A stretch of 64,000 nt of DNA from the NCBI GenBank assembly GCA_017626945.1, contig JAGAHT010000024.1, forward strand, positions 1,120 to 65,119, written 5' to 3'. Under the pieces are notes generated by a model. It did no database searches, was not told the origin of the DNA, and saw only the letters and a program-made list of their open reading frames with translations. The position numbers and the translations under genes are program-made. Positions 36,058 through 36,368 of this stretch are shown one piece after another (the stretch's first letter is position 1; each line of letters starts with the position of its first letter). The stretch comes from Fibrobacter sp. (GTDB lineage: Bacteria > Fibrobacterota > Fibrobacteria > Fibrobacterales > Fibrobacteraceae).

Positions 36058-36368
36058 TGGAGCCTCCCGGACTTGAACCGGGAACCAACGGGTTTACGTT
36101 CGTGATGCTTTCGCACCTCCGTGGACTATGTCTTCGCCATGCCCTTGCGGGTTTAGGCGTGGGAGGCTTGCGCGGTCATTAAGCAGGCTCTACTGCTCCG
36201 CTAGTCTCTACACCTTCCAGGAGTGTACCCCTGGCTCGGCTCGGCGTTGCCGTGCAGCGTTTCCGCTGGTTAGGTTTCACCGATTTCTTCCCATTCGCAT
36301 CCAACTCTTTCAAGCTGGTGCCACAATTTTTATGAGTCCGACGCTCTAACCGATTGAGCTAAGGCTCC
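36058..36368 (-). tRNA. tRNA with CAT anticodon (probably Ile2, lysidine type), split by a group I intron; exons 36368-36332 and 36094-36058
   Basis: Joined exons GGAGCCT TA GCTC AATCGGTTA GAGC G TCGGA CTCAT|AA CCCGT TGGTT CCCGG TTCAAGT CCGGG AGGCTCC A form a cloverleaf; anticodon stem has two mismatches; CCA not encoded. Confidence 0.85.
36095..36331 (-). ncRNA. Group I (IC3, Azoarcus tRNA-Ile type) intron, 237 nt, no internal ORF
   Basis: Core motifs AATCGGTGAAACCTAA, GGCAACGCCGAGCC, GAAGGTGTAGAGACTAG, GAAGACATAGTCC, GGTGC-GAAA-GCATC (P9); P1 = CUCAU|AA-AAA-UU-GUGG with U.G at the 5' splice site. Confidence 0.9.

Follow-up and report, generated by a model that had tools for sequence, protein, structure and literature searches.

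The DNA analysed here (the window, 64,000 nt) includes a prophage of rumen Fibrobacter, which carries a tRNA(CAU) gene split by a small group I intron. The gene was read on the minus strand from 36400 to 36030 and has the following parts, with a caret marking splice junctions throughout the text.

36368-36332, minus strand: tRNA(CAU) exon 1 (tRNA positions 1-36), GGAGCCTTAGCTCAATCGGTTAGAGCGTCGGACTCAT, ending ...GGACUCAU
36331-36095, minus strand: group I intron of IC3 type, 237 nt, AAAAATTGTGG...CATCACGAACGTA
36095, minus strand: omega position, the last intron base, A instead of G, placed by gapless alignment with omega-G relatives
36094-36058, minus strand: tRNA(CAU) exon 2 (tRNA positions 37-73), AACCCGTTGGTTCCCGGTTCAAGTCCGGGAGGCTCCA, CCA not encoded
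36030-36055, minus strand: terminator-like hairpin and T run, directly 3' of the tRNA

Exon 1 divides into GGAGCCT-TA-GCTC-AATCGGTTA-GAGC-G-TCGGA-CTCAT and exon 2 into AA-CCCGT-TGGTT-CCCGG-TTCAAGT-CCGGG-AGGCTCC-A, with U36332 as the -1 base at the 5' splice site. The intron separates positions 36 and 37 of the anticodon loop (the 'Ile2.5' site, CAU^AA), such that precise excision of 237 nt restores the loop CUCAUAA and leaves A36095 as the last intron base (G36101, G36097, T36096, A36095^A36094, the last of these being the first base of exon 2). The first-pass annotation had argued that the intron must end ...GAACGTA for this loop to be rebuilt, and both the bases and their coordinates proved to be exact. 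Default ARAGORN misses the tRNA gene; run with its intron option, the program reports a split gene whose intron is 237 nt long. By sequence inspection the tRNA is not an initiator (G1-C72 is paired and 11-24 is C-G), and is either Met or Ile2.

Four independent lines place the junctions at CAU^...A^AA: the guide pairing, P9.0 together with a gapless 3' end, the relatives, and intron-less DNA. A 53-nt intron-less partial tRNA in loci L155 and L173 reads AGAGCGTCGGACTCAT^AACCCGTTGG...GGCTCCA, i.e. AGAGCGTCGGACTCAT^AACCCGTTGGTTCCCGGTTCAAGTCCGGGAGGCTCCA, and is identical to the joined exons of the window, and the same 237 nt are skipped by intron-less paralogs in public runs X1, X5, X29, and X36. 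All 35 distinct relatives recovered share the CAU^AA insertion, so that the intron-less copies and the relatives agree on the insertion site of class Ile2.5Ug. Because the intron and exon 2 both begin with AA, the deletion can slide by 1-2 nt, with A terminal in every version; the intron of L168 starts with G, and the U-1/omega-A boundary is unambiguous there.

The anticodon stem (36342-36338 / 36092-36088) has an A31.C39 mismatch in every gut tRNA(CAU) gene of this family, whether or not the gene has an intron. The window tRNA has an extra U27.U43 mismatch, at which intron-less relatives have U27-A43 or G27.U43, and its exons may be a chimera resulting from exon co-conversion during intron transfer.

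Structure and class of the intron

A manual structure with P1, P2, P3, P4, P5, P5a, P6, P6a, P7, an extra hairpin, P8, P8a, P9.0, and P9 was used for all pair counts. Its most informative elements are as follows.

36321-36335, minus strand: P1, exon UCAU (36335-36332) with internal guide GUGG (36324-36321), 100% paired
36202-36208, minus strand: P7 5' strand GAGACUA with bulged A36207, invariant in 14 aligned sequences and with the same letters in the Azoarcus-type seed
36172-36201, minus strand: extra hairpin between P7 and P3', GCGG/CCGC plus AGCAG/CUGCU, the mark of the subfamily and a 33-nt insertion in the Rfam alignment
36123-36128, minus strand: P7 3' strand UAGUCC, from the covariation counts
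36096-36122, minus strand: P9.0 (ACG 36122-36120 / CGU 36098-36096) around P9 (36119-36113 / 36108-36102, GAAA loop)

The conserved group I core is present (P3-P8, the P3/P7 pseudoknot, and P4-P6), and the core strings GGCAACGCCGAGCC, GAAGGUGUAGAGACUAG, and AUAGUCC (GGCAACGCCGAGCC, GAAGGTGTAGAGACTAG, and ATAGTCC as DNA) are those of the Azoarcus-type tRNA-Ile intron; they recur in viral contigs L001, L002, and L122. The 5' splice site is marked by U36332.G36324, which is U.G in 14/14 aligned sequences, and a candidate P10 of 2 bp pairs U36326 and U36325 with A36093 and A36094 of exon 2. The pair G36206-C36124 beside the bulged A36207 corresponds to Azoarcus G130-C177 and on that homology should bind guanosine; it is unchanged in all aligned sequences. 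The P7 strands GAGACTA/TAGTCC (36208-36202 / 36128-36123) are canonical as originally annotated, and do not vary among the 14 aligned sequences. P9.0 likewise places the terminal residue where it had been predicted, as the ACG/CGT pairing abuts omega with no unpaired base before A36095.

In a 266-nt search the window matches Rfam RF00028 from 36344 to 36102 (36344..36102; 21.6 bits, E=0.0014), with P1-P9 placed as in the manual structure. The window is not matched at the RF00028 gathering threshold (50 bits), and a 601-nt Rfam search with E up to 10 misses the intron. The low score is largely attributable to the 33 nt inserted between P7 and P3' by the extra hairpin; scores of relatives are 52.4 (L132, above the 50-bit threshold), 47.9 (L129), 45.9 (L001), and 39.1 bits (L164). 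The extra hairpin covaries with that of soil relatives (AGGGG/CCCCU). LOOT RNA (RF03000) gives a weak match over P8-P9 (36087-36159, minus strand, 25.1 bits, E=0.012), and the same match in L168, most likely reflecting shared receptor and GNRA hairpin motifs and not a separate gene.

The intron resembles the Azoarcus-type tRNA-Ile(CAU) intron (IC3, Ile2.5Ug) in its CAU^AA site, in the CAU/GUG guide pairing with its U.G pair, in the core strings, in a P9 with a GAAA loop and an A.A mismatch, in the arrangement of P9.0, and in a 3' end that aligns without gaps. It differs in that omega is A, in the extra 30-nt hairpin between P7 and P3', and in P3, P5a, P6a, and P8; the hosts also differ, with Fibrobacter and its phages for the window family and Betaproteobacteria for the Azoarcus type. 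The Azoarcus-type sequence is present in the seed alignment of Williams (2020, bioRxiv 10.1101/2020.01.27.920355) as Aol6.Ile2.5Ug.

The terminal base in public runs and in relatives

The terminal A is confirmed. In the contigs assembled from 12 independent public runs it is uniform, with no other base (DNA runs X1, X5, X7, and X10; RNA runs X25, X26, X33, X37, X29, and X36; X39 and X42, whose type is unrecorded). The sources of these runs are gut samples (cattle, sheep, goat, and others) and isolate transcriptomes. The isolate transcriptomes X29-X32 and X36 derive from a cultured Fibrobacter that carries the gene. A occupies the same position in 21 further, independently assembled loci from three collections. 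The first-pass annotation had raised a sequencing error at 36095, for which a G would be expected; no G occurs in the contigs of the 12 runs, we found no point in favour of a sequencing or assembly error, and the chance that one could account for the same base in 12 runs and 21 loci is negligible. The only intron variants reported among the runs are at 36171 and 36304, the latter changing a G.U pair of P2 to G-C.

A metagenome scan with a core pattern yielded 43 loci, a scan of one genome per species yielded 9 loci (9/9 in Fibrobacter or Fibrobacterales MAGs), and viral scans added three further copies. After removal of duplicates there are 35 distinct subfamily sequences, all of which have the extra hairpin. 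A BLAST search against a phage collection gave no match, and a viral-locus search with the upstream 93-aa ORF gave no additional contig. The guanosine that almost universally ends group I introns is replaced by A in 14 of the distinct sequences, which are 82-99.6% identical to the window intron and come from Fibrobacter genomes, their phages, and gut metagenomes; in the other 21 the same aligned column is G. These omega-G relatives comprise six gut sequences (72-77% identity to the window) and 15 from soil or peat (62-68%). In a neighbour-joining tree the 14 omega-A sequences form one clade, and G is constant in its gut sister clade (6) and in the clade from soil (15). The closest omega-G relative (L135/L139) has the P9.0 of the window (ACG...CGU) followed by G^AACCCGU. 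The simplest history would be one G-to-A change at the base of the Fibrobacter-associated clade, and the suggestion that homologues might all carry G is not borne out by the alignment.

The omega-A intron is found in at least four different tRNA(CAU) bodies with fully paired acceptor and T stems (the window's, L164, L168, L171, and L176). Three members are chromosomal: L171 lies between aconitase-like and transketolase-like genes, both of housekeeping type, and L168 and L176 adjoin a glycogen-synthase-like gene, these functions being read from N-terminal sequences. Isolate runs compared with the chromosomal L171 locus gave cross-matches only, with the flanks absent. In L142/L170 another sequence, equal in length and just as well paired, stands in place of the whole P5a hairpin (window 36268-36255), with the rest of the intron ~99% identical; recombination between introns seems to have swapped this module.

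Omega-G is among the most conserved single nucleotides in RNA catalysis and shares the pocket of the guanosine cofactor, and textbooks describe it as obligatory for exon ligation. Among 5292 bacterial tRNA group I introns, 98.5% have U-1/omega-G, and the remainder comprise 72 Leu.3Cg introns and four errors, with no omega-A class described (Williams 2020, bioRxiv 10.1101/2020.01.27.920355). The Leu.3Cg introns are similar to those described here as bacterial tRNA introns known from sequence that depart from the U-1/omega-G rule, but they do so at the 5' site (C-G for U.G) and retain G at omega. Another parallel is the 23S rRNA group I intron of Coxiella burnetii, whose terminal base is said to be A and which reportedly splices. 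It is given as lacking omega-G by Raghavan et al. (2007, J Bacteriol 189:6572) and as IB2 in PMC11019260. The Coxiella and Fibrobacter introns are both natural, conserved bacterial group I introns without the canonical terminal G; the Coxiella intron is a single rRNA element in one species, whereas the Fibrobacter introns form a diversified tRNA IC3 clade with close omega-G sisters. A literature search turned up no paper that connects Fibrobacter with group I introns. What we judge to be new is an apparent natural omega-A lineage within a known ribozyme class, which should be of interest to specialists in RNA catalysis and to tRNA annotators.

Selection on the fold and proposed splicing with a terminal adenosine

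Most omega-A copies are nearly identical, and the deeper covariation comes from a few sequences, L142, L164, L168, L171, and L176. Among nine omega-A sequences 99.5% of cells are standard pairs, every helix is 100% paired except P2 (95%), and 10 pairs have double-sided changes, a count reached by 0/500 shuffles; slid partners pair at 32-40%. The 14-sequence alignment, which adds L168, L171, L176, and the three nearest G relatives, reaches 98.8% pairing, and 16 of its pairs are compensatory. Such changes are seen in P2, in P5a (L142), in P9 (4/6 pairs, L164), and in P9.0 (2/3 pairs, L164), and P6a retains its pairing through single-side G-C/G.U/A-U exchanges; P7, J6/7, and J8/7 are invariant. 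P9.0 is GCA/UGC in L164 and ACG/CGU in the window, with A next in both, and all three of its pairs are Watson-Crick in 14/14 omega-A introns, compared with one to three pairs in the G relatives. The pattern supports continued selection on the helices of the omega-A clade and would not be expected from simple decay. In the 35-sequence alignment no column other than omega is fixed in the clade and essentially absent from the G relatives, so that nothing visibly compensates for the loss of G.

The gene is transcribed. Intron-containing RNA is abundant in rumen metatranscriptomes, at a depth of 430 in X37 versus 5.6 in the upstream flank, and such contigs prove transcription, not splicing. No assembled contig of the RNA runs joins the window gene's own exons; all that these runs contain are unspliced contigs and paralogs that differ by two mismatches in exon 1. 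Mature tRNA is rarely captured in RNA-seq libraries. The lack of a ligated product among these contigs leaves room for a slow second step, and the intron-bearing copy may be dispensable, as intron-less tRNA(CAU) paralogs are present in the same organisms.

These observations probably reflect a functional, Fibrobacter-specific IC3 lineage in tRNA(CAU) at CAU^AA in which the 3'-terminal guanosine is replaced by adenosine; the A is kept in a family still evolving like working ribozymes, which points to a natural variant and not to an error or a dead gene. The alternative that the intron is dead or dying, with G-to-A blocking ligation and the tRNA genes being pseudogenes kept through paralogs or through spread by homing, is unlikely. 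It would fit the unchanged G-binding site with no compensating change, the absence of a spliced product from the RNA contigs, the intron-less paralogs in the same organisms, the two mismatches in the window's anticodon stem (U27.U43 and A31.C39), and a free-standing GIY-YIG gene that adjoins the window copy and could drive spread. However, A is retained by 14 distinct sequences across up to 18% divergence, the helices stay paired through compensatory changes that a non-splicing intron has no reason to keep, the exons are still perfect cloverleaf halves in at least four tRNA bodies, and some copies are chromosomal. The first-pass annotation had offered both a rare natural omega-A intron and a mutation that impairs the second splicing step. 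The 14 distinct introns in one clade, with their helices kept by compensatory changes, favour the former; as a recent event the latter is disfavoured, since A is kept down to 82% identity, and the second step could still be slow.

Two other choices of splice site would avoid a terminal A by using G36097. Ribozymes with a mutated omega-G are known to choose nearby G residues, and a G is present at omega-2 in all omega-A members, so that the normal 5' site could be joined after G36097, as the main product or a frequent by-product. This would give the 9-nt loop CUCAU-UA-AA, just as the first-pass annotation had computed, but use of the site is highly improbable: G36097 is base-paired within P9.0, the two inserted bases vary among members (UA vs CA), the product is unlike any intron-less tRNA seen, and the selection on the exons would be left unexplained. 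If the 5' site is shifted as well, the intron becomes 36333-36097 with C36334 at -1 and G36097 as omega-G, and the product is a CUA amber suppressor, which is plausible for a phage. This is exactly the choice of ARAGORN and keeps omega-G; 72 bacterial tRNA introns with C at -1 have been described (Leu.3Cg, bioRxiv 10.1101/2020.01.27.920355), and the scoring scheme of that study would prefer C/g over U/a. The shift does yield CUA for the window, as the first-pass annotation had computed, but would give CCA in L164 where other members have CUA. It would moreover break P9.0, in which G36097 is the middle pair (C-G in 13/14 aligned sequences), and leave only two exon pairs in P1; the guide pairs with UCAU and has U.G at U36332 in 14/14. 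An exon 2 beginning UAAA would lack the P10 pairing, the relatives and the intron-less copies all have CAU^AA, and the chromosomal Fibrobacter copies would be constitutive suppressors. The terminase, portal, and capsid proteins of the prophage also span their Pfam profiles end to end in the standard code, and we regard the shifted pair of sites as having scarcely any chance of being used. Recoding of stop codons in the prophage, which would have supported a CUA suppressor, is rejected, as the standard code reads the Pfam-supported genes through at full length.

With A36095 as the natural end of a working intron, splicing would presumably proceed as follows. The pre-tRNA is transcribed, as the intron-containing RNA contigs show, and folds into the usual P1-P10 architecture, as the covariation shows. 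By homology, free guanosine in the G36206-C36124 pocket would attack after U36332, which is paired with G36324. A36095 would then be placed mainly by the perfect 3-bp P9.0, the short P10 (AA/UU), and the tRNA stems that hold the exons, with its base identity contributing little. The 3'-OH of U36332 would attack between A36095 and A36094 to give the loop CUCAUAA, the form suggested by the intron-less copies. The second step probably lags behind that of the omega-G relatives, yet would be fast enough for selection to act on the tRNA genes and the fold.

More tentatively, and with rather little confidence, the second step may no longer depend on the guanosine pocket recognising the terminal base, with P9.0, P10, and the tRNA scaffold alone setting the 3' site, or may need a helper, such as a protein cofactor or an RNA ligase that works on a 3' site opened by hydrolysis. 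If so, this natural ribozyme would answer how dispensable omega-G is, and the phage copies might be a slow, regulatable gate on tRNA supply. In the Tetrahymena ribozyme a G-to-A change at omega strongly slows exon ligation, which counts against an efficient omega-A intron; an engineered A-U pocket in the same ribozyme switches nucleoside specificity, and the pocket of the omega-A clade has no such visible re-tooling. Deamination of the terminal A to inosine by a TadA-type enzyme was set aside, as TadA needs a UACG context and the local sequence is GUAAA.

The omega-A clade, with its unchanged pocket, and its omega-G sisters (L135, with the same P9.0) offer a natural comparison for the contribution of omega-G, specifically for its effect when a tRNA body holds the exons together. 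For annotation, scoring that insists on omega-G would mis-call such genes as amber-suppressor tRNAs, and ARAGORN called CUA.

Prophage context of the tRNA gene

The structural genes of the prophage and the features flanking the tRNA are as follows.

7051-9869, plus strand: capsid module (scaffold-like DUF2213, cement, and major capsid)
29988-31397, plus strand: terminase (Pfam)
31412-32653, plus strand: portal (Pfam)
32657-35323, plus strand: Mu F-like protein
35327-36004, minus strand: free-standing GIY-YIG nuclease gene (PF01541, 25.3 bits, cut-off 22.6), directly downstream of the tRNA
38790-38843 (flank to 38890), plus strand: truncated tRNA(CAU), the 3' 53 nt from the D-stem on, AGAGCAGCGGACTCATAACCCGCGGGTTCCGGGTTCAAGTCCCGGAGGTCCCA

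The order of the structural genes is unusual (7051-35323, plus strand), with the capsid module and the genes downstream of it preceding terminase, portal, and Mu-F, and it looks as if the phage map is circularly permuted or two elements are adjacent.

The GIY-YIG protein is a candidate homing nuclease acting with the ORF-less intron, and an ORF resembling it occupies the corresponding position in L140. A free-standing homing endonuclease reportedly lies beside the intron-bearing psbA gene of cyanophages ('collaborative homing'), and the arrangement here is similar in that a GIY-YIG gene without an intron of its own adjoins an intron-containing tRNA gene. A link to the mobility of the intron is a guess, as most intron copies have no GIY-YIG neighbour.

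The truncated tRNA(CAU) lies ~2.7 kb from the intron-containing tRNA in inverted orientation, with GCGGGACAGGGC before it and a terminator and host-type genes after it, and looks like the point at which the prophage joins a host tRNA gene (an att junction). L155, L173, and L174 are arranged alike, their fragment being equal to the phage's own tRNA in its intron-less form. A second copy of this att-like fragment was not found within the window.

Copies compared at the tRNA 3' end (the window at 36058, L003, L123, L127, L130, L140, L147, L174, and L175) show at least six unrelated sequences beginning right after it among otherwise identical intron-tRNA copies. The upstream flank also comes in two versions, diverging near 36382 in organism A and L167. 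These comparisons mark the tRNA end as a recombination or mosaic boundary.

At the left end of the window (1805-6910, minus strand) a gene for a 1142-aa protein with PLD-nuclease, SNF2/ResIII helicase, and Helicase_C domains lies beside one for a 412-aa PLD-nuclease (NgoFVII-like). The pair occupies a low-GC stretch (about 40-42%) and resembles a defence or restriction module.
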